Shown here: one piece after another, positions 1 through 10,201 of the stretch
Layout of the letters: the number at the start of each line of letters is the position of its first letter
Numbering within the stretch: position 1 is the first letter of the stretch
From: a virus
Lineage: Duplodnaviria; Heunggongvirae; Uroviricota; Caudoviricetes
Virus record (IMG/VR): IMGVR_UViG_2558860904_000026
Coordinates: 1 to 10,201 of that record
Reading direction: 5' to 3' (one strand)
DNA length: 10,201 nucleotides
Program-made: the position numbers and the translations under genes
The notes under the pieces: model-generated
Database searches by the model: none
The model's input: the letters and a program-made list of their open reading frames with translations, nothing else
Told to the model about the DNA's origin: nothing

Positions 1-957
1 ATGTTAAAGATAATACCCGGTGCAACAGGATACTTTAATAAAACACTCAATTCAAATCAATTCGATAATGAAGATGCAATCAAAGGTAAAGTAAATAGTA
101 TATATGGTAAATCTATTGATTATTCAACGATGCGTCATCGGGATATAATTATTGCAAAAATAGATTTATTTATTCAAAGAATCACTCATAATTTATGGAC
201 TGCACGTGAAAAAAATGTGACGTTAATTAAGCAAATAAACGATCTCAAAATGTGTGTCAATGAGTATATTGGAGATTGTACTGATGAGGAATTAAACGAT
301 CGTGAATTTATTGCATCAGTTGTTGACAGGGCTATTTTTCATTTCGCGATTAATAGTATATGTAATCCCGAGGATAATAAAGATGCGACACTCATAGAAC
401 GATGTACTTTTGATGTAGAAACCAAGAATGGTCTTCCCTCCACGGTTCAGCTATTTTATGAGGAATCTAAAGATAATGAACCTTTAGCGAATATACATTT
501 GCAAGCAATAGGTTCTGGTTTCTTAACGTTTGTTAATGCCTGCCAGGAACATGATGACAACAGCTTAAAATTATTTGCTTCGCTGTTAATTTCCCTTTCA
601 TATTCTAGTGTCTACTCAGATTTTGCAGGAAGAGTGAATATTAATGAATATAATGATAACTACCTGAAAGCTCAGTTTGAAGAATTATCTCAACGTGATA
701 TGAAGAAGTACCTGGGAGAGATGAAGCGTCTGGCAGATGGGGGAGAAATGAATTTTGATGGCTATCTGGATAAGATGTCACATCTGGTGAATGAAGGAAC
801 GCTCGCCCCTGATATTTTAAGCAAAATGCGAGATGCTGCACCGAAATTAATTGACTTTGCTAAGTCGTTTGACCCAAACTCAAAGGAAAAGATTAAAATA
901 TATACAGGCACTTCTAAATTAATTTATGATTTATTCGGGGTTAAATCGGAGAAATAA
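1..957 (+). CDS. Hypothetical protein, 318 aa, strongly AT-rich; no family recognised. Sits upstream of the dusA 5' fragment, so probably host flank or an older island.
   Basis: Uninterrupted 957-nt ORF ending TAA, followed by a rho-independent terminator. Composition is visibly AT-rich with Lys/Asn/Asp/Ile-rich codons, unlike the tail genes. Begins with ATG at position 1, so the true start may lie upstream of the window; an internal ATG at 250 would give a 235-aa product. Any correspondence to the K-12 gene upstream of dusA (yjbM-like) is unverified recall. Confidence 0.55.
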
Positions 958-998
958 TATGTGAAGTTCTTCGATGGTATGAAAGGTATTACATAAAA

Positions 999-1027
999 GA
1001 ACCCAATGTTTATTGGGTTCTTTTTTT
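999..1027 (+). terminator. Rho-independent terminator after the 318-aa gene
   Basis: Inverted repeat agaacccaat / attgggttc with a 4-nt loop, followed directly by a T7 run (1021-1027). Confidence 0.7.
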
Positions 1028-1318
1028 CTCTATCAGTGCTATTAGCAGGGAGAGATATCACCGGAGTTTAATGTGTGATTTTTATTTATCGTCGAATCTG
1101 TATTGTTTATCATTGCTTTTCACAACGCTAACATCTAATAAGATTAGATATTCACTTCGTGAGAGCTTCATGCCTTGAGAGGATCTCAATTTTCTTTTGC
1201 AATGAGACAGGCGCTTCCTGTTGTTATGGTATAGTACCCCGTTATTGAGCCTCCTGAACAGTGATGCTGAATAACATAACCACATGATATATCGATAAAA
1301 TAATCTCTACATTTGAAA

Positions 1319-1441
1319 ATGCACGGTAATTCTGAAATGCAAAAAATCAACCAAACCAGCGCAATGCCTGAAAAAACTGACGTTCACTGGAGTGGTCGGT
1401 TTAGCGTTGCACCAATGCTCGATAGGATGTACCGTTTTTGA
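1319..1441 (+). pseudogene. dusA: Orphan 5' fragment of dusA (tRNA-dihydrouridine synthase A): about 35 native N-terminal codons, then unrelated sequence and a stop
   Basis: Translation MHGNSEMQKINQTSAMPEKTDVHWSGRFSVAPMLD matches the E. coli DusA N-terminus as I recall it (native continues WTDRHCRYF). Here the frame continues RMYRF-stop, so homology ends after codon GAT at 1421-1423. Confidence 0.7.
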
Positions 1442-1531
1442 AAAACAAATAGTTATATACTTTGTGGGAGCCTATTGGGAACCCGGCGTTTTCATTTCAA
1501 GGTGTAATCCATACGCGGCTTAAGAATGAGA

Positions 1532-1537
1532 TATAAT
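1532..1537 (+). promoter_or_regulatory. Candidate -10 hexamer (TATAAT) about 30 nt upstream of the GNAT-like gene
   Basis: Perfect TATAAT at 1532-1537; no convincing -35 at 17-bp spacing (ccatac). Weak call. Confidence 0.25.
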
Positions 1538-1566
1538 GCGACTTTTAGTGTTCCGCTTGAGAGGCC

Positions 1567-2103
1567 ATGATGCTTACCCTGGACGAGATAGGTCAATCAG
1601 TACGTAACAATATCCAGTTGATTATTGATCATGTCGGCTTACCTCTTGCTGTTGGTCCGCTCAGTGATGATGATTACAAGATTCTGTGTGGTGGCTATGG
1701 TGAGCTTGAATGGGACTATGCGTTAAGTACCTATGGCAACTCCAGAGAAAAGTATGAGTTCTGCATAAAACTTGTTCAGCAAGGTCGGGTTCAGGGAATA
1801 CCATCAGGAGCAGCAATTTGTGTTTATGGGGTTGAAGAAAACATCTTTCGTATCCATATGATCGAAAGGTTTTCTAGAGAAGATGAATCTCACCCATTGA
1901 AAGGGCGCATGGTTTTACTCACTCTTATGAGTGCTTTTATATTTTGTAAAGCTGTTGAATGTAAAGTTGTCCACATTGTAGAGCCAGTACCAGAACTGGT
2001 GCAGTATTACGAGTCTTTTGGTTTCCGCATGGAACAGTGCGGTTATGTGATGTCGGCAGTCATTGATGAGCTGCAGGATATCTTTCTTAAATTTGCTCAG
2101 TAG
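1567..2103 (+). CDS. GNAT-fold (N-acetyltransferase-like) protein, 178 aa, first gene inside the element after the dusA junction
   Basis: ORF with SD-like GAGAGG (1559-1564); tandem ATGs at 1567 and 1570, and 1570 has the better spacing. C-terminal half has GNAT-like layout: beta strand ICVYGVEENIFRIHMIERF, then HPLKGRMVLLTLMSAF, then YYESFGF resembling the Y-x-x-GF motif. No canonical Q/R-x-x-G-x-G/A acetyl-CoA motif, so the fold assignment is tentative. Confidence 0.6.
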   Translation: MMLTLDEIGQSVRNNIQLIIDHVGLPLAVGPLSDDDYKILCGGYGELEWDYALSTYGNSREKYEFCIKLVQQGRVQGIPSGAAICVYGVEENIFRIHMIERFSREDESHPLKGRMVLLTLMSAFIFCKAVECKVVHIVEPVPELVQYYESFGFRMEQCGYVMSAVIDELQDIFLKFAQ

Positions 2104-2120
2104 GTATAGACGAGAAGGGT

Positions 2121-2133
2121 CTACAAATTGTAG
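2121..2133. promoter_or_regulatory. Short palindrome ctacaa-a-ttgtag immediately after the GNAT-like gene stop
   Basis: 6-bp perfect inverted repeat around a single central base, embedded in a longer imperfect palindrome (gggtctacaaattgtaggataccc). No T-run follows, so not a classic terminator. Confidence 0.25.
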
Positions 2134-2208
2134 GATACCCGTCCAGATTACCTTAAAGGTACATCTATGGCAGTCGTTTTGTGCTTAAACTACTAAGAAA
2201 CGATGTCA

Positions 2209-2229
2209 CCAATCGACATGATCGATTGG
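2209..2229. promoter_or_regulatory. Operator-like inverted repeat ccaatcga-N5-tcgattgg upstream of the 57-aa gene
   Basis: Perfect 8-bp arms with a 5-bp spacer, about 70 bp upstream of the ATG at 2300; overlaps a TTGGCA hexamer. Confidence 0.3.
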
Positions 2230-2299
2230 CATAAGTTAGCGAAACAAGCTAGCTTTAAAGAAAGGGTTAGAGACGCCTTTACTGTCTCGGGAGTTTTCT

Positions 2300-2473
2300 A
2301 TGAAAGATCAAAAAGCAACCAAGCCACAGGTTAAGTTCGACACAATGAAAGCATTCGCAGGTATGGGTGCTGCTGTTGAAGTTCTGATGAAGGCTGCTCC
2401 TAATGCGTTCACTCACGCTACTGTCTCTGGTAAAGAGCAGCAGGGTAAGCTTCGTCGTCGCAAAGCAGCATGA
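2300..2473 (+). CDS. Small hypothetical protein, 57 aa, basic C-terminus (MKDQKATKPQVKFDTMKAFAGMGAAVEVLMKAAPNAFTHATVSGKEQQGKLRRRKAA)
   Basis: Not in the supplied ORF track (below its size cut-off). Found by hand: SD GGGAG at 2289-2293, 6-nt spacer, ATG at 2300, stop TGA at 2471-2473, then a strong terminator. Confidence 0.5.
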   Translation: MKDQKATKPQVKFDTMKAFAGMGAAVEVLMKAAPNAFTHATVSGKEQQGKLRRRKAA

Positions 2474-2492
2474 TCATAGCTGGTGCTTTTTG

Positions 2493-2518
2493 AAAACCCG
2501 CCTTCAGGCGGGTTTTTT
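2493..2518. terminator. Bidirectional rho-independent terminator between the converging 57-aa gene (+) and PrtN-like gene (-)
   Basis: aaaa-cccgcc-ttca-ggcggg-tttttt: GC-rich 6-bp stem with 4-nt loop, A-run on one side and T-run on the other, so it can terminate both strands. Confidence 0.75.
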
Positions 2519-2520
2519 CT

Positions 2521-2802
2521 TTAGTGATGTTCTTTGTCCTTCTGTTTGACTGTTCTGACCTGTTCCCACTCGATACGTCCTTCTTCTCGCCTTTTGTCTA
2601 TGTATTCCGCAAGATCTTGAATATTGATGCAACGTTTTGCTTTTTGTGATGTGCCGATGCGATATGTTGGAACGGGCAACTTACAAGCGTTTGCTTTTGC
2701 TTCTGCCGTGGCTGGACTCATACCAAAGTACTTTTGGCTAACTGCTGAGAGTTCAATGTTTGGGGTATTGAATTCAGCCATCAGTAAAAACAAGGTGTTC
2801 AT
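2521..2802 (-). CDS. PrtN-like small DNA-binding protein (putative phage transcriptional activator or excisionase-like), about 93 aa
   Basis: Minus-strand ORF; the track start at 2829 is GTG. The ATG at 2802 has SD GGAG with a 6-nt spacer and gives MNTLFLLMAEFNTPNIELSAVSQKYFGMSPATAEAKANACKLPVPTYRIG..., which I recognise as the PrtN/pyocin-activator-like family common in enterobacterial prophage early regions. Recall only. Confidence 0.6.
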   Translation of the reverse strand: MNTLFLLMAEFNTPNIELSAVSQKYFGMSPATAEAKANACKLPVPTYRIGTSQKAKRCINIQDLAEYIDKRREEGRIEWEQVRTVKQKDKEHH

Positions 2803-2838
2803 AATTTTCTCCATCAAAACCGGCTGCACCCGGGAAAA

Positions 2839-3213
2839 TCATAATTCTGTGCTGGTGGCAGGAATTAATTTCTGCCAGATAGCGGAAACATATTTTGCCT
2901 GATGACGGGCATCAGCCAGGGCGTTGTGCCGTTCGCCATCGAAAGGCATGTCCATTTTGGGGTCGAATCCGATGGAACGCCCAAGCGTAACGATCGTGCG
3001 TACATCGTGGTCATTCCAGTACGCCCACGGGCAGATTTGTCCTGCTCGCTCGTAAGCTCCACGTAAAATTACGTTGTCGAAGGTGGCCCCGTTACCCCAG
3101 ACTTTTAAATATTTCGTATTGTCTGCGTGCCGGTTAATGAAATGGTTTAGTTCTGAGAGAGCATCGCTGATCGACAAAGTATCATCAATACTTCCAGCGA
3201 TACCAGCGCGACT
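2839..3213 (-). pseudogene. DnaQ-like (DEDDh) 3'-5' exonuclease, C-terminal part only; N-terminus lost or frameshifted
   Basis: Translation ...WGNGATFDNVILRGAYERAG...HNALADARHQAKYVSAIWQKL carries Exo II-like (FDN) and Exo III-like (H-x-A-x-x-DA) motifs. The frame is open upstream only to a stop at 3214-3216, has no ATG and starts at TTG in the track. No Exo I (D-x-E) segment is present in this frame. Confidence 0.6.
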
Positions 3214-3344
3214 TTAAATGCGGTAAGTACGTTTTTAACCACATCGATTTTGAATACTATTTCATCACATACAAACGATTTATCGTCTACTACCGTTTCA
3301 ATTCCGGTAATCGTGTTTTGTAGCCATTTGGTTAATTCAGCCAT
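3147..3344 (-). CDS. 65-aa ORF overlapping the exonuclease fragment in the +1 frame; possibly a displaced or replaced N-terminal segment
   Basis: ATG at 3344, stop at 3147. Overlaps the exonuclease frame by about 65 nt one frame off; a single-nucleotide indel between about 3180 and 3250 would fuse them. No recognisable motif; weak SD. Confidence 0.3.
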   Translation of the reverse strand: MAELTKWLQNTITGIETVVDDKSFVCDEIVFKIDVVKNVLTAFKVALVSLEVLMILCRSAMLSQN

Positions 3345-3352
3345 TTTTCATT

Positions 3353-3369
3353 ACCGCCCTTTCGGGCGG
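3353..3369 (-). promoter_or_regulatory. GC-rich hairpin (accgccc-tttc-gggcggt) in the leader 9 nt upstream of the 65-aa ORF start
   Basis: 7-bp perfect stem with tetraloop; no U-run on either strand, so not a terminator. Possible RNA structure in a 5' UTR. Confidence 0.25.
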
Positions 3370-3490
3370 TCTCCTGATGTTCTGAGGGTGCAGGAATCCC
3401 TCCGGTTAAGGATTAAATTTTATTTACAGAACTGAATTTAATTATTCAGATATACGTATCTGTAACCTTACGAACCTACTCACTGGATGC

Positions 3491-3997
3491 CTATTTCATA
3501 AAAATAATCCAGTGGGTTTTATCGTTTTTTCCTGTTCGTTGACCGATAACAGGTTTTCTGTCGGTCAGTACCAATATCTGGCGAACAGGTATTTGCGTTT
3601 CATTCCATTTAAAAATCAGAACGCCGGATGGACGCAACACACGAAAGGCTTCTTTAAATCCCTGCCGCAAATCATCACGCTAGGTATCTTTATTCAGCCG
3701 TCCATATTTCTTTCCCATCCAGGCGTTATCACCAACACGCTCAAGATGCGGAGGGTCGAATATAACCATCGAAAAAGATGCGTCTGCAAATGGTAGTGCA
3801 CGAAAATCAGCTATCAGATCAGGACTGATAATCAGGCGTCGTCCATCACACAATGTGTGCTCTTCCTTTCTGATATCGCTAAATATCGCCCGGTCGTCAT
3901 TCTTATCGAACCAGAACATGCGACTGCCACAGCACATGTCGAGGATTGCTGCATGTCCAGTCACTGGCTGCCTCCTTTGCGAAGCCGTTCCGCCCAT
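3491..3997 (-). pseudogene. Class I SAM-dependent methyltransferase (about 167 aa) interrupted by an in-frame amber (TAG) codon at 3680-3682
   Basis: N-terminal 105 aa contain motif I-like ILDMCCGS, an acidic loop, and LPFADASFSMVIFDPPH. After the TAG the same frame stays open for 62 more codons (RDDLRQGFKEAFRVLRPSGVLIFKWN...) including an RVL-x-P-G-G-like methyltransferase motif, and ends at a stop at 3491-3493. I translated the downstream segment by hand. Confidence 0.6.
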
Positions 3998-4311
3998 TCT
4001 TCAAGGGATTTCTCTGCATATTCACCGGACAGGCCATCAATCGGATGCGATTCATTAGCTAACTCTTCTTTTGCTGACAGAATCATGCGTGTAACGTCGA
4101 AAACTTCAGCCAAAGGCTTATTGATAAATCCGTGATTGAAAGCAGCAGCAAGACGGCTTGCGGTATAGTTAATACCCTCGTTGCGAGCCTCAGCACGTAC
4201 TTCATCGAATTTACGCACCAGATACTCAGCATTTGTTTCATTCACTTTCAGATCTCGCGGTACACATTTCCCGCGAAGAAACCCTTCCATTTCGAAAACA
4301 TTCATGCGCAT
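3961..4311 (-). CDS. Hypothetical prophage early-region protein, 116 aa
   Basis: ATG at 4311 preceded by SD GGAG with an 8-nt spacer. Its start overlaps the HD gene stop (ATGCGCATGA) and its 3' end overlaps the methyltransferase start by 37 nt, which suggests translational coupling. No motif recognised. Confidence 0.55.
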   Translation of the reverse strand: MRMNVFEMEGFLRGKCVPRDLKVNETNAEYLVRKFDEVRAEARNEGINYTASRLAAAFNHGFINKPLAEVFDVTRMILSAKEELANESHPIDGLSGEYAEKSLEEWAERLRKGGSQ

Positions 4312-4838
4312 TTGTGTAACTCCGATAACTCGTTAAAACGTTCCATAAACATCCCGTAGGCATGGCTAGGTGCCAGTGGAATCACGTTGAACATCTCTGT
4401 TGCCGGGATGCCTTCCAGTACAGGCCAGAAAGAGCCATCATCAAGCCCGAGATCGCGGCGTTCGGTTGCCAGCATGATAAGATCGGCATATTTCACGGGC
4501 GTACTCATAACTGGGGGTAACCCGTATTTCTCACGGATTACGGCGTCAATTTTTTCTTCCATCCGTTTATAGTCAGGAAGAAGGCGTTTCAGTGGAGCGG
4601 GGATGTCCTGGCAATACGCTTCTGTTGCATCATGCATTAATGCTTCAAAAGCAAATTCCTGCGGTACCAGCTGGCTGCAAAGAACCGCATGTTGGGCGAC
4701 GCTGTAGAAGTGCGAAAGATGACCGGCAAAGCGACAGATATTTGAAAGGGAAACCGCGATATCGTTAATATCGATGTCGTCTTTATTTATCCTGTCATAA
4801 TAAAAATGCTTCCCGGAAAAAGTTTTAATAAATGACAT
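4302..4838 (-). CDS. HD-domain phosphohydrolase (YfdR-like 5'-deoxynucleotidase family), 178 aa
   Basis: Translation contains H...HD metal-binding signature (SVAQHAV ... LMHDATEAY) typical of HD hydrolases. The track start at 4865 is GTG; the ATG at 4838 has SD GGAG with a 6-nt spacer and gives 178 aa, the length I recall for E. coli YfdR. Confidence 0.7.
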   Translation of the reverse strand: MSFIKTFSGKHFYYDRINKDDIDINDIAVSLSNICRFAGHLSHFYSVAQHAVLCSQLVPQEFAFEALMHDATEAYCQDIPAPLKRLLPDYKRMEEKIDAVIREKYGLPPVMSTPVKYADLIMLATERRDLGLDDGSFWPVLEGIPATEMFNVIPLAPSHAYGMFMERFNELSELHKCA

Positions 4839-4931
4839 TTTGTTCTCCACGTATATGCGCTGCACCGCGCTGAATTCTGGTAAAAAGAATCCCTCACCAT
4901 CCGGCGATTATTGAGTAAATTACGTTTCCAT

Positions 4932-4953
4932 AAATGCCCCCTCAGGGGCATTT
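4932..4953 (-). terminator. Perfect 9-bp hairpin (aaatgcccc-ctca-ggggcattt) 13 nt downstream of the 128-aa ORF stop; weak terminator or RNA stability element
   Basis: Perfect inverted repeat with 4-nt loop; the only U residues are those within the stem, so intrinsic termination is uncertain. Confidence 0.3.
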
Positions 4954-4965
4954 GCAGTAATGAAA

Positions 4966-5352
4966 TCAGGCGGTGAAAGTACCAATAAAGGTTTCTACTT
5001 TGCTGTCCTTGAATTTCTCAACAAGCAGATCACGAAATTCGTTAGCCATTTCTTCCTGCACCGCCTCCAGCTGAATAATGCGCAGAACCAGTACCGGACG
5101 ATCGCCAGTGATAATGCTGAGGCGTAATTTAAACGGACGTTCTTTCAGACCTTCAAACGGAATGCATTTAAATTCAAATGCCACTGGCATAATGTCTTTG
5201 GTCTTCGCTTCGACAGACTCCATCAGGGAGCGTTTGCCGCTGAAGTCATTATCTTCAAAATCAGCGGTCTGGTTTGCTTCAATCGTGATTTTACGGACCG
5301 CCGCAGCCGCTTTTGTTGCCTGAATGGTGTCACCATTAGCATCAAAGCCCAC
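4966..5352 (-). pseudogene. Hypothetical early-region protein, probably 5'-truncated at the deletion junction with the J fragment
   Basis: Frame is open from 5406 down to the stop at 4966 but has no ATG; the first possible start is GTG at 5352. The upstream end abuts and overlaps sequence that encodes J-like protein on the opposite strand. Confidence 0.45.
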
Positions 5353-6110
5353 AAGGTAGTCGGCCCAGTCTTCAATCCATTCTGGTTGCCGCCAATCGTA
5401 TCGCGTTTATTGACCCGGCAAACGGGAATGAAACGCCGATGTTTGTGGCGCAGGGCAACCAGATATTCATGAACGACGTGTTCCTGAAGCGCCTGACGGC
5501 CCCCACCATTACCAGCGGTGGAAATCCACCGGTATTTTCCCTGACATCAGACGGAAAGCTGACCGCTAAAAATGCGGATATCAGTGGCAGTGTGAATGCG
5601 AACTCCGGGACGCTCAACAACGTCACGGTAAATGAAAACTGTACGATTAAGGGCATGCTGGAGGCGACTCAGGTCAGAGGTGACTTCGTTAAAGCTGTAT
5701 CCAAATCATTTCCGAAACAGGCTGGTACGTGGGGTAACACGGAAACACCAAACGGGACGGTTACAGTCACCATCAGCGATGATCATAACTTTGACCGTCA
5801 AATCATTATTCCGCCCATTATCTTTAACGGAATAGCGTATAGCGATCCGGGAAGTGGTAATAACCCGGGAGGTACAAGATACACGGGTTATGGTTTTGAA
5901 GTTCGCAAAAACGGTGTATTAATCGCATCCAGAGAAACTAAAGGGGCCATTCCCGGTAGCTACAGTGCGGTTATTGATATGCCGAGTGGCAGGGGAAGCG
6001 TCACTCTGGAGTTTAAGGTTTTCCATAAAGGCAATCAGCGGGCAGGTAATATCACCGACTGTACGGTGATTGTGACCAAAAAAGCGGCTTCCGGCATCAG
6101 TATCCGTTGA
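5340..6110 (+). pseudogene. J: C-terminal (receptor-binding) fragment of a lambda J-like central tail fibre / host specificity protein
   Basis: Translation ...[74 protein letters not shown]... matches what I recall of the lambda J C-terminus, and it sits directly upstream of lom-stf-tfa as in lambda. Frame opens only at 5340; lambda J is over 1100 aa, so roughly the first 900 codons are missing. Confidence 0.7.
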
Positions 6111-6132
6111 AATATTTATAACCCTAATAACG

Positions 6133-6156
6133 GGCGCCAGAAATGGCGCCTTTTTT
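6133..6156 (+). terminator. Rho-independent terminator between the J fragment and lom
   Basis: ggcgcca-gaaa-tggcgcc stem with GNRA-type tetraloop, followed by T6 (6151-6156). Confidence 0.75.
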
Positions 6157-6180
6157 ATTGCAGAAAATCGGGAGGTAATT

Positions 6181-6780
6181 ATGCGTAAAGTTTGTGCAGC
6201 AATTTTGTCCGCAGCCATTTGTCTGGCCGTATCCGGTGTGCCTGCATGGGCGTCTGAGCATCAGTCCACGCTGAGCGCAGGATATCTTCATGCCAGTACG
6301 GACGCTCCCGGCAGCGATGATCTGAACGGGATTAACGTGAAATACCGTTATGAGTTTACGGACACACTGGGGCTGATTACGTCCTTCAGTTATGCCAACG
6401 CCGAAGATGAGCAAAAAACGCATTACAGCGATACCCGCTGGCATGAGGATTACGTGCGTAACCGCTGGTTCAGCGTGATGGCAGGGCCGTCTGTGCGTGT
6501 GAATGAATGGTTCAGTGCGTATGCGATGGCGGGTGTGGCTTACAGCCGTGTGTCGACTTTTTCCGGGGATTATTTCCGCGTAACTGACAACAAGAGGAAA
6601 ACGCACGACGTGCTGACCGGAAGTGATGACGCTCGCTACAGCAACACATCTCTGGCGTGGGGGGCTGGCGTGCAGTTTAACCCGACCGAATCAGTGGCCG
6701 TTGATGTCGCTTATGAAGGCTCCGGCAGCGGTGACTGGCGCACTGACGGTTTCATCGTGGGTGTCGGTTATAAATTTTGA
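6181..6780 (+). CDS. lom: Lom-family outer-membrane beta-barrel protein (Ail/Lom/OmpX family), 199 aa
   Basis: SD GGAGG (6171-6175), ATG at 6181. N-terminal signal peptide MRKVCAAILSAAICLAVSGVPAWA. C-terminus ...VDVAYEGSGSGDWRTDGFIVGVGYKF matches the lambda Lom C-terminus as recalled. Canonical position between J and stf. Confidence 0.9.
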   Translation: MRKVCAAILSAAICLAVSGVPAWASEHQSTLSAGYLHASTDAPGSDDLNGINVKYRYEFTDTLGLITSFSYANAEDEQKTHYSDTRWHEDYVRNRWFSVMAGPSVRVNEWFSAYAMAGVAYSRVSTFSGDYFRVTDNKRKTHDVLTGSDDARYSNTSLAWGAGVQFNPTESVAVDVAYEGSGSGDWRTDGFIVGVGYKF

Positions 6781-6801
6781 TTAGTAACACAGCGTTATGA
6801 C

Positions 6802-6829
6802 AGCCCGCCGGTTCAGGCGGGCTTTTTTG
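6802..6829 (+). terminator. Rho-independent terminator after lom
   Basis: agcccgcc-ggttca-ggcgggct stem-loop followed by T6 (6824-6829). Confidence 0.75.
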
Positions 6830-6839
6830 TGGAGTGGGT

Positions 6840-9758
6840 ATGGCAGCAGTACAAATATCAGGCGTGCTGAAAGATGGTGCGGGAAAACCAATACAGAACT
6901 GCACCATTCAACTGAAAGCCAGACGTAACAGCACCACGGTGGTGGTGAACACGGTGGCCTCTGAAAATCCGGATGAGGCAGGGCGTTACAGCATGGACGT
7001 CGAGTATGGTCAGTACAGCGTCATTCTGTTGGTGGAAGGGTTCCCGCCGTCACATGCCGGGACCATCACCGTGTATGAAGATTCTCAACCCGGTACGCTG
7101 AATGATTTTCTTGGTGCCATGACTGAGGATGATGTCCGTCCGGAGGCACTGCGCCGTTTTGAGCTGATGGTGGAAGAGGTGGCGCGTAACGCGTCCGCGG
7201 TGGCACAGAACACGGCAGCCGCGAAGAAGTCAGCCAGCGATGCCAGCACATCAGCCCGTGAGGCGGCAACCCATGCGACTGATGCTGCGGACTCAGCACG
7301 CGCAGCCAGCACGTCAGCCGGACAGGCCGCGTCGTCGGCTCAGTCAGCGTCTTCCAGCGCAGGAACGGCATCAACAAAGGCTACTGAAGCATCAAAAAGT
7401 GCTGCCGCTGCAGAGTCCTCAAAAAGCGCGGCGGCTACCAGTGCCGGTGCGGCGAAAACGTCAGAAACGAATGCGGCAGTGTCACAACAATCAGCCGCCA
7501 CTTCTGCATCCACCGCGACCACGAAAGCGTCAGAAGCTGCCTCCTCAGCCAGGGATGCGTCGGCTTCAAAAGAGGCGGCAAAATCATCAGAAACGAGCGC
7601 AGCCTCGAGCGCCAGTAGTGCAGCCTCCTCGGCAACGGCGGCAGGCAATTCCGCGAAGGCGGCCAAAACGTCTGAGACAAACGCTAAGTCCTCTGAAACG
7701 GCAGCAGAACAGAGTGCCTCCGCAGCAGCAGGCTCAAAAACAGCGGCTGCATTATCTGCCAGTGCCGCGTCAACAAGTGCCGGGCAGGCCTCAGCCAGTG
7801 CCACCGCCGCCGGAAAATCGGCAGAAAGTGCCGCATCGTCTGCTTCAACAGCCACAACGAAGGCTGGCGAAGCCACTGAACAGGCCAGCGCAGCAGCGAG
7901 TTCTGCTTCCGCAGCGAAGACATCCGAAACGAACGCGAAAGCGTCGGAAACCAGCGCAGAATCCTCAAAAACGGCTGCCGCATCGTCAGCCAGTTCGGCG
8001 GCGTCATCGGCATCATCTGCGTCTGCTTCAAAAGATGAGGCGACCAGACAAGCGTCAGCAGCGAAGAGCAGCGCCACGACGGCATCCACGAAGGCGACAG
8101 AGGCAGCTGGTAGTGCGACGGCAGCAGCTCAGAGCAAAAGTACGGCGGAATCTGCAGCAACGCGCGCTGAGACAGCGGCAAAACGGGCAGAGGATATTGC
8201 ATCCGCCGTGGCGCTTGAGGATGCGAGCACGACGAAAAAGGGGATAGTACAGCTCAGCAGTGCGACTAACAGCACTTCCGAGTCACTGGCGGCAACGCCA
8301 AAAGCCGTTAAGGCCGCGTATGAGCTGGCTAACGGGAAATACACCGCACAGGATGCAACGACAGCACAGAAAGGGATAGTTCAGCTTAGCAACGCGACCA
8401 ACAGCACATCTGAAATGCTGGCGGCAACGCCAAAGTCGGTAAAGGCAGCCTATGACCTTGCTAACGGGAAATATACTGCTCAGGACGCTACGACAGCACA
8501 AAAAGGAATTGTCCAGCTCAGTAGTGCAACCAACAGCGCATCTGAAACGCTTGCCGCGACACCGAAAGCAGTGAAAGCAGCTAATGATAATGCGAATGGT
8601 CGGGTACCTTCTGCCCGTAAGGTGAATGGTAAGGCGCTTTCATCGGATATAACACTGACGCCGAAAGATATTGGTACGCTTAACTCAACAACAATGTCAT
8701 TCAGCGGTGGTGCTGGTTGGTTCAAATTAGCAACGGTAACCATGCCACAGGCGAGTTCTGTTGTTTCAATTACGTTGATTGGTGGCGCGGGATTTAACGT
8801 GGGGTCACCTCAACAGGCAGGTATATCTGAACTTGTTTTGCGTGCAGGTAATGGTAATCCGAAGGGGATTACTGGTGCTTTATGGCAGCGCACATCGACA
8901 GGGTTTACAAATTTTGCCTGGGTCAATACATCTGGTGATACTTACGATATTTACGTTGCAATCGGAAATTATGCGACTGGTGTAAATATTCAATGGGATT
9001 ATACCAGTAATGCCAGCGTGACGATTCATACGTCACCAGCATATTCTGCTAATAAGCCGGAAGGGTTAACGGACGGTACAGTTTATTCACTCTATACGCC
9101 ATCAGAGCAGTTTTATCCGCCTGGCGCACCAATCCCGTGGCCATCAGATACCGTTCCGTCTGGCTATGCCCTGATGCAGGGGCAGACTTTTGACAAATCT
9201 GCATACCCGAAACTTGCAGCCGCTTATCCGTCAGGCGTGATCCCTGATATGCGTGGCTGGACGATTAAGGGCAAACCTGCCAGTGGTCGGGCCGTATTGT
9301 CTCAGGAACAGGACGGCATTAAATCGCACACCCACAGCGCCAGCGCATCCAGTACGGATTTGGGGACGAAAACCACATCGTCGTTTGATTACGGCACTAA
9401 ATCCACGAATAACACCGGGGCGCACACGCACAGTGTGAGCGGTACAGCCGCAAGTGCCGGAAACCATACTCATAGTGTCACAGGCGCATCAGCAGTCAGC
9501 CAGTGGTCACAAAATGGGTCAGTACATAAGGTAGTGTCTGCGGCCAGTGTGAATACAAGTGCTGCAGGAGCGCACACTCATAGTGTCAGCGGCACAGCTG
9601 CATCTGCAGGTGCTCACGCACATACTGTCGGTATTGGTGCTCATACGCACTCTGTTGCGATTGGCTCACATGGACACACCATCACCGTTAACGCTGCGGG
9701 TAACGCGGAAAACACTGTCAAAAACATCGCATTTAACTACATTGTGAGGCTTGCATAA
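6840..9758 (+). CDS. stf: Side tail fibre protein Stf, 972 aa, with lambda-like N-terminus, long Ala/Ser/Thr-rich low-complexity region, three tandem 44-aa repeats and His-rich C-terminal tip
   Basis: ATG at 6840 with SD GGAG (6831-6834); the track start at 6834 is GTG with no spacer. N-terminus [39 protein letters not shown]... matches the lambda Stf N-terminus as recalled. C-terminal repeats [15 protein letters not shown] with H-x-H motifs are typical of phage fibre tips. Stop TAA at 9756-9758. Confidence 0.9.
8236..8631 (+). repeat. Three tandem 132-bp (44-codon) repeats inside stf
   Basis: Units begin at about 8241, 8373 and 8505 (gggatagtac / gggatagttc / ggaattgtcc). They encode [45 protein letters not shown] and two variants; the third copy diverges at its end. 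Confidence 0.8.
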
Positions 9759-10201
9759 TGGCATTCAGAATGAGTGAACAACCACGGACCATAAAAATTT
9801 ATAATCTGCTGACCGGAACTAATGAATTTATTGGTGAAGGTGACGCATATATTCCGCCTCATACAGGTCTGCCAGCAAACAGTACCTATATTGCACCGCC
9901 AGATATTCCGGCTGGCTTCGTGGCTGTTTTCAACAGTGATGAGTCATCGTGGCATCTCGTTGAAGATCATCGGGGTAAAACGGTTTATGACGTGGCTTCC
10001 GGCGACGCGTTATTTATTTCTGAACTCGGCTCATTACCGGAAAATGTTACCTGGTTATCGCCGGAAGGGGAGTTTCAGAAGTGGAACGGCACAGCCTGGG
10101 TGAAAGATGCAGAAGCAGAAAAACTGTTCCGGATCCGGGAGGCGGAAGAAACAAAAAACAGCCTGATGCAGGTAGCCAGTGAGCATATTGCGCCACTTCA
10201 G
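9758..10201 (+). CDS. tfa: Tail fibre assembly chaperone Tfa, N-terminal 148 codons; gene runs off the window end
   Basis: ATG at 9758-9760 overlaps the stf stop (TAATG); SD GAGG at 9746-9749. Translation [78 protein letters not shown]... matches lambda Tfa as recalled. No stop within the window, so it is absent from the ORF track. Confidence 0.9.

Follow-up and report, generated by a model that had tools for sequence, protein, structure and literature searches.

One described reference point for a very small phage methyltransferase is PamA, a 141-aa orphan adenine methyltransferase of the S. aureus prophage mPhi11, which methylates GATC as judged by a DpnI assay (PMC12435837). Since PamA does so, enzymes of such a small size can methylate DNA (PMC12435837). 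The family dealt with here consists, in its intact form, of minimal class I methyltransferases of about 155 aa that carry an invariant DPPH motif and are widespread in temperate phages. Our literature search on yfdM, orphan methyltransferases and the DPPH motif found no paper on this family or on an experimental substrate. In phage databases the family is labelled 'DNA methyltransferase' (PHROG 954, 11564 and 6151), a label that is an annotation only.

The chromosomal site is better described. The dusA gene is a known prophage integration site, and a comparative-genomics paper on strain SS17 described a phage region of about 12 kb between yjbK and dusA. That region is probably the same element as the one analyzed in this study.

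The DNA analyzed here is a stretch of 10,201 nucleotides (hereafter the window). Sequence identity and RefSeq annotation place the window at the dusA/zur site of Escherichia coli O157:H7 and show it to be the remnant of a prophage. In this remnant, a gene of the DPPH family is interrupted by an in-frame amber codon. The strain O111:H- 11128 has a more complete form of this prophage in the same place, in which the gene is uninterrupted and encodes 157 aa (WP_000145671.1). As argued below, the interrupted gene is very probably a dead copy, produced by a recent TGG-to-TAG nonsense mutation in the methyltransferase gene of a decaying prophage, and not a gene that is expressed by suppressor read-through.

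Results

The interrupted gene

At 3680-3682 the letters of the plus strand are cta, and hence TAG on the minus strand. Translation of the minus strand over 3488-3997 gave 105 codons, this stop, exactly 62 further sense codons and then a TAG at 3491-3493. The 62-codon stretch past the stop (minus strand, 3494-3679) starts with RDDLRQGFKEAFRVLRPSGVLIFKW and ends with IFMK; given in a longer form, it reads RDDLRQGFKEAFRVLRPSGVLIFKWNETQ...HWIIFMK. The 157-aa read-through product, in which the stop was masked, matched PHROG 954 over residues 3-157 (E=1.3e-84) and PHROG 6151 over residues 57-157, across the stop (E=2.1e-35). On account of these matches, the parts before and after the TAG belong to one protein family. 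A chance open frame is ruled out, because the E-values are far stronger than those expected by chance.

The start of the gene was placed on the basis of two observations. The RefSeq gene at the equivalent position in strain EC4115 corresponds to 3491-3964 of the window, and the N-termini of the homologues read MTGHAAILD, MSAPATILD or MSQQTILD. The true start is therefore the GTG at 3964. Judged from the sequence, the ATG at 3997 is a spurious over-extension upstream, and the truncated product is predicted to have 94 aa, not 105. A reading made earlier from the letters of the window (hereafter the sequence-only reading) had described the TAG at 3680-3682 as lying in a methyltransferase frame with 62 coding codons beyond it. 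Translation and the PHROG matches bear this out, but the length of 105 aa that it gave for the ORF has to be replaced by 94 aa.

The whole methyltransferase pseudogene spans 3491-3964 on the minus strand, from the GTG (3964-3962) to the terminal TAG (3493-3491). These limits are taken from RefSeq and from alignment with the O111:H- 11128 allele, and the intact allele has 157 codons. The premature amber codon at 3680-3682 is codon 95. The 94 codons that are still translatable (3683-3964, minus strand) encode an N-terminal fragment in which translation and conservation place motif I (LDMCCGS, 3923-3943) and motif IV (DPPH, 3746-3757). The 62 in-frame codons past the stop (3494-3679, minus strand) would stay untranslated; translation, alignment, the AlphaFold2 model described below and the PHROG 6151 match indicate that they encode the invariant residues R108 and W120. 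Upstream lies a 116-aa ORF on the same strand (3961-4311), which encodes the hypothetical protein WP_001242740.1 and occupies the yfdS position of CPS-53. Its TGA stop overlaps the GTG start of the methyltransferase gene as GTGA.

Origin of the stop codon

The window was compared with O111:H- 11128 over 3191-5384 (2,194 bp), and the two differed at a single base, 3681. The plus strand has T at this base in the window and C in O111, so that the coding strand reads TAG and TGG, respectively. Homologues thus carry a sense codon where the window has its stop: TGG stands at codon 95 in O111:H- 11128 and also in E. coli CFSAN004176, KO11FL and O157:H7 NE 1092-2. Tryptophan was found at this position in 144 of the 146 aligned representatives (50%-identity clusters, counting sequences with a residue at the column). 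Both the alignment with O111 and this count point to TGG (Trp95) as the ancestral codon, with 3681 as the mutated base.

The distribution of the two alleles was examined with 61-mers centred on the codon. The TAG 61-mer was found exactly in 202 complete genome records. The 31 exact matches listed were all either labelled O157:H7 or, where a serotype was absent, similar in genome size and in the position of the locus. For the TGG 61-mer, 164 records matched exactly; these span a range of serotypes, O111:H8 and O104:H4 among them. Among the records examined, the TAG allele occurred only in the O157:H7-type remnant, and all other homologues examined have Trp. Since the exact TAG 61-mer is common to 202 independent complete genomes, the TAG is not a sequencing error. 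That possibility, which the sequence-only reading had named as one that would undo its proposal, is ruled out.

By these comparisons the TAG is a genuine allele, which arose by one G-to-A transition and has been inherited clonally. The allele is fixed in the main O157:H7 lineage. The mutation is recent, because no other change has accumulated in the 2.2 kb since the split from the O111 copy. It is due to this recent origin that the downstream codons still look fully coding. In RefSeq, the gene is labelled "SAM-dependent methyltransferase" in both EC4115 and NCCP 13906 and is given there as a pseudogene with an internal stop.

Two further copies were of interest. The strain O157:H7 NE 1092-2 has a far more complete prophage at the dusA site (NZ_CP038328.1, 5242069-5251129) with the intact TGG allele. 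Aligned over 2,194 bp, this prophage and the window disagree at 15 positions. Comparison of the sequences suggests that it is a replacement or a separate acquisition, and not the direct ancestor of the remnant. In the Qin-like prophage of KO11FL, the homologous methyltransferase gene (3116-3472 of the extracted locus) has its own nonsense mutation: codon 119 has changed from AAA to TAA. RefSeq calls this copy an intact 118-aa 'class I SAM-dependent methyltransferase' despite the TAA. Given this independent nonsense mutation, the gene decays repeatedly in cryptic prophages.

Loss of the C-terminal part of the fold

A family set of 148 representatives (50% identity clusters) was obtained from a search of 1.84 billion proteins, and an alignment of 81 sequences (A2) was used for the analysis of conservation. 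The DPPH motif (residues 70-73) was present in 143 of 145 aligned representatives. Eight positions were invariant in the 81-sequence alignment, namely D30, P48, D70, P71, P72, H73, R108 and W120.

An AlphaFold2 model was built on an intact relative (P0001), which is 96% identical and has the same numbering (pLDDT 95.5, pTM 0.90). In the model, the N-terminal 94 residues form strands 7-9, 26-30, 34-37, 43-46 and 64-69 and a helix at 82-87. The part after the stop forms a helix at 95-109, a long strand at 110-121, a helix at 127-131 and two further strands at 140-144 and 150-156. The stop falls on the first residue of helix 95-109. It thus cuts off 63 of the 157 residues, or 40% of the fold, including the invariant R108 and W120 and all three strands of the C-terminal part (110-121, 140-144 and 150-156). 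From the model and the conservation we infer that the 94-aa fragment would be unable to fold into an active enzyme. The N-terminal half of the model is nearly free of helices, which is unusual for a Rossmann-type methyltransferase.

The prophage remnant

The window is 100% identical over 3300-4400 to many E. coli O157:H7 chromosomes, and over 1-5515 it is identical base for base to EC4115. In EC4115 this region has zur/yjbJ/dinF on one side and, on the other, a duplicated piece of the 5' part of dusA. At the position equivalent to 1319-1423 of the window, RefSeq annotates in EC4115 a 105-bp partial tRNA-dihydrouridine synthase gene (the 5' end of dusA), a fragment that shows where one end of the prophage has its attachment site. 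Between the dusA fragment and the remnant genes, the EC4115 annotation contains no integrase gene.

Two deletions were located by blastn and from the junction sequences. At the first junction (3191/3192), 1,464 bp of the O111 prophage are absent, comprising the N-terminus of an exonuclease, the DUF551 genes and a small ORF. At the second junction (5384/5385), the annotation shows two truncated genes side by side in head-to-head orientation, yfdQ (DUF2303) and, on the opposite strand, the tail-tip gene J. Compared with the O111 and NE 1092-2 prophages, the second deletion has removed the repressor and regulatory genes, the replication and lysis genes and most of the structural genes. These two deletions, together with the truncated neighbouring genes, indicate a general decay of the element. 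A promoter search of the minus strand over 3100-5700 yielded no sigma-70-like site, a negative result of little weight, and no tRNA or Rfam RNA family was found in the window.

The right-hand part of the window has a different character. Beyond 5515, mismatches to EC4115 accumulate and homology is lost at about 5642. The right-hand 4.6 kb (5516-10201) contain the end of J, lom, a 974-aa tail-fibre ORF (6834-9758) and tfa. This part had no match of at least 99% in 5,426 complete E. coli genomes, the best being 95.4%, and by its sequence it looks like a recombinant tail-gene mosaic.

The intact family and its possible substrate

The fold of the protein is that of class I methyltransferases, in which a glycine-rich motif I comes after beta-1. 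In the AlphaFold2 model, D70-P71-P72-H73 directly follows strand 64-69 (beta-4). A motif of the DPPH type right after beta-4 is the hallmark position of amino-methyltransferases, whose motif IV has the form (D/N/S)PP(Y/F/W/H) and which act on N6-A, N4-C or N2-G of nucleic acids or on N5-Gln. The sequence searches were less specific. Among the 81 members, the generic Pfam profiles Methyltransf_11 and Methyltransf_25 matched 69 and 50, respectively, and N6_N4_Mtase matched 13 weakly. The NCBIfam profile search gave nothing near a cutoff. Sequence and profile searches of the PDB gave weak matches to PH0226, archaeal Trm11 and the Thermus beta-class DNA methylase 2zie, the last falling around DPPH...W...RVLRPSG. 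A profile search for the subfamily, as the sequence-only reading had proposed, thus places the protein among the class I methyltransferases and goes no further than generic profiles and a weak N6_N4_Mtase match. Neither a dedicated Pfam family nor a solved structure was found for the DPPH methyltransferases of about 155 aa.

The 157 residues form a single compact domain in the AlphaFold2 model, in which no separate target-recognition domain is seen, and some relatives carry additional N- or C-terminal extensions. A tblastn search matched 256 phage genomes, mostly at 45-65% identity. They included phages of Streptococcus, Vibrio, Acinetobacter, Listeria, Enterococcus, Staphylococcus, Corynebacterium and others. 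Phages of Porphyromonas also carry members, and between enterobacterial prophages and the phages of these genera the sequences are 45-60% identical.

The sequence-only reading had considered an amino-methyltransferase acting on nucleic acid instead of a small molecule. The invariant DPPH after beta-4 and the phage family label speak for it, although the fold and profile searches do not separate the family from small-molecule methyltransferases. The suggestion is thus plausible, and a nucleic-acid amino-methyltransferase is the most likely ancestral function, with a probability that we consider fairly good. Of the two nucleic acids, DNA is the likelier target, given that temperate phages carry the gene in their early or replication modules.

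Discussion

The sequence-only reading had offered two explanations for the TAG: either a prophage gene in decay had recently acquired a nonsense mutation, or the amber codon is read through in a suppressor host. The first is well supported by the present analysis: the TGG of O111 is the sole difference in 2,194 bp, the element has undergone two large deletions, and RefSeq gives the gene as a pseudogene. The course of events was very probably as follows. A G-to-A transition at base 3681 in the ancestor of the main O157:H7 lineage changed codon 95 from TGG (Trp) to TAG, so that translation ends after 94 residues. Motif I, which binds SAM, and the loop with DPPH are retained in the resulting fragment. 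What the fragment lacks of the Rossmann-like fold is its long helix, the beta-5 strand at its centre and a beta-hairpin at the C-terminus, and, as the model and the conservation suggest, the fragment would be inactive. The remnant that surrounds the gene at the dusA/zur site is cryptic, and the two deletions have cost it most of its genome. There would be no selection for repair, and the allele would pass on clonally. No observation speaks directly against this account.

The pseudogene is already known, in that the reference annotation flags its internal stop, and the finding is an ordinary one. Its importance is low, as it adds one more point-mutated gene to the many found in the defective prophages of O157:H7.

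There are readings in which the allele would mean more. The TAG allele might have been fixed because the silencing of an orphan methyltransferase was advantageous, and not by drift; an example would be a methyltransferase that perturbs the host epigenome or clashes with host restriction systems. Alternatively, trace read-through might still methylate nucleic acid. We consider this pair of suggestions unlikely. If true, the O111 TGG and O157 TAG alleles would be a natural on/off pair, one base apart, for finding the substrate of the DPPH family, which is conserved in phages of many phyla.

Read-through can also be considered at the level of the codon itself. Low-level natural read-through of UAG-C by near-cognate tRNAs could yield a trace of enzyme, and the allele would then be leaky or attenuated and not null. 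The base after the stop is indeed C, and UAG followed by C is among the weaker, relatively leaky terminators in E. coli. Methyltransferases, moreover, can work at low copy number. Read-through, however, would mostly insert Gln, giving W95Q at a position where 144 of 146 relatives have Trp. The upstream regulatory region has also been deleted, the minus strand shows no sigma-70-like site in 3100-5700 (itself weak evidence), and the remainder of the element is decaying. A leaky allele is thus very unlikely.

A host amber suppressor tRNA that decodes the TAG and so gives a full-length, functional methyltransferase is still less probable, and we regard it as extremely improbable. The downstream frame is wholly intact, as this explanation would have it, but the same is equally expected from a very recent mutation. 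Classical suppressors insert Gln, Ser, Tyr or Leu and not the near-invariant Trp. The stop is not conserved, TGG being found in the homologues examined, and there is no tRNA within the window. The glnV and glnX genes of EC4115, the strain identical to window positions 1-5515, carry wild-type CTG anticodons and no supE. This check covered glnV/glnX (supE) of EC4115, and a suppressor allele of serU, tyrT, leuX or trpT keeps a small residual probability. The supE-type tRNA was found exactly in 155 records, and the 30 listed were all K-12 laboratory strains (C600, DH5alpha, DH1 etc.). Strong amber suppressors are rarely kept by natural isolates. The second explanation of the sequence-only reading, that a suppressor host reads the amber codon, is therefore not upheld; a supE host in particular is excluded for EC4115 by the glnV/glnX anticodons, and the listed carriers of supE are all laboratory derivatives of K-12.

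Two unrelated chromosomal genes near the glnV operon of EC4115, ybeQ and djlC, are also pseudogenes with internal stops (205-1182 and 4848-6299 of the extracted locus). Should these stops be TAG, they would have a bearing on the suppressor question.

An assembly or sequencing artefact concealing a true TGG, which might be suspected from the single base that separates the window from the O111 allele, has a negligible probability in view of the same 61-mer in 202 independently assembled complete genomes and of the internal stop given by RefSeq in the separate assemblies of EC4115 and NCCP 13906.

The TGG/TAG pair can serve to mark the lineage cleanly, and as two natural, isogenic alleles it would allow the function of the methyltransferase to be tested by contrast. 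The intact family might merit study, since its sequence has been kept to a striking degree in phages of both Gram-negative and Gram-positive hosts.

Comparison with known systems

The nearest relative of the window copy is the intact gene of WP_000145671.1 in O111:H- 11128 and NE 1092-2. Gene and chromosomal site are the same, and so are the neighbours, yfdR and the 116-aa ORF. In O111 the intact gene is identical to the window gene at 473 of 474 nucleotides, and it differs in having TGG at codon 95 and hence the full 157 aa. The O111 prophage has also kept the genes for the exonuclease, DUF551 and the repressor as well as yfdQ and yfdP, which the window has lost by deletion. At the level of the family, the members of PHROG 954 (with 11564 and 6151) have the DPPH motif and Trp95 in common with the window gene, whereas the window copy is interrupted by the stop.

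The sequence-only reading had proposed to look for homologues in CPS-53-like prophages. The link holds for the neighbourhood: the CPS-53 prophage of K-12 has yfdQ, yfdR and the ORF at the yfdS position in the same order as the window, and yfdP is also found in the intact O111 copy. It does not hold for the methyltransferase itself, of which CPS-53 has no orthologue. YfdM of K-12 (a 'putative methyltransferase') and YfdT were considered as orthologues and rejected, as neither shows similarity to the window protein.

PamA resembles the window family in being a very small phage-borne orphan enzyme with a (D/N)PP(Y/H) motif at about residue 65-73, a similar position (PMC12435837). The motif of PamA is, however, NPPY, in contrast to the invariant DPPH of the window family, and the comparison is one of analogy and not of membership.

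In the laboratory amber mutants of lambda and T4, too, an in-frame TAG interrupts a phage gene that is intact in all other respects. Such mutants were made in the laboratory and are grown on supE or supF hosts, whereas the TAG described here is found in a lineage with wild-type glnV/glnX and in a remnant that is non-viable.
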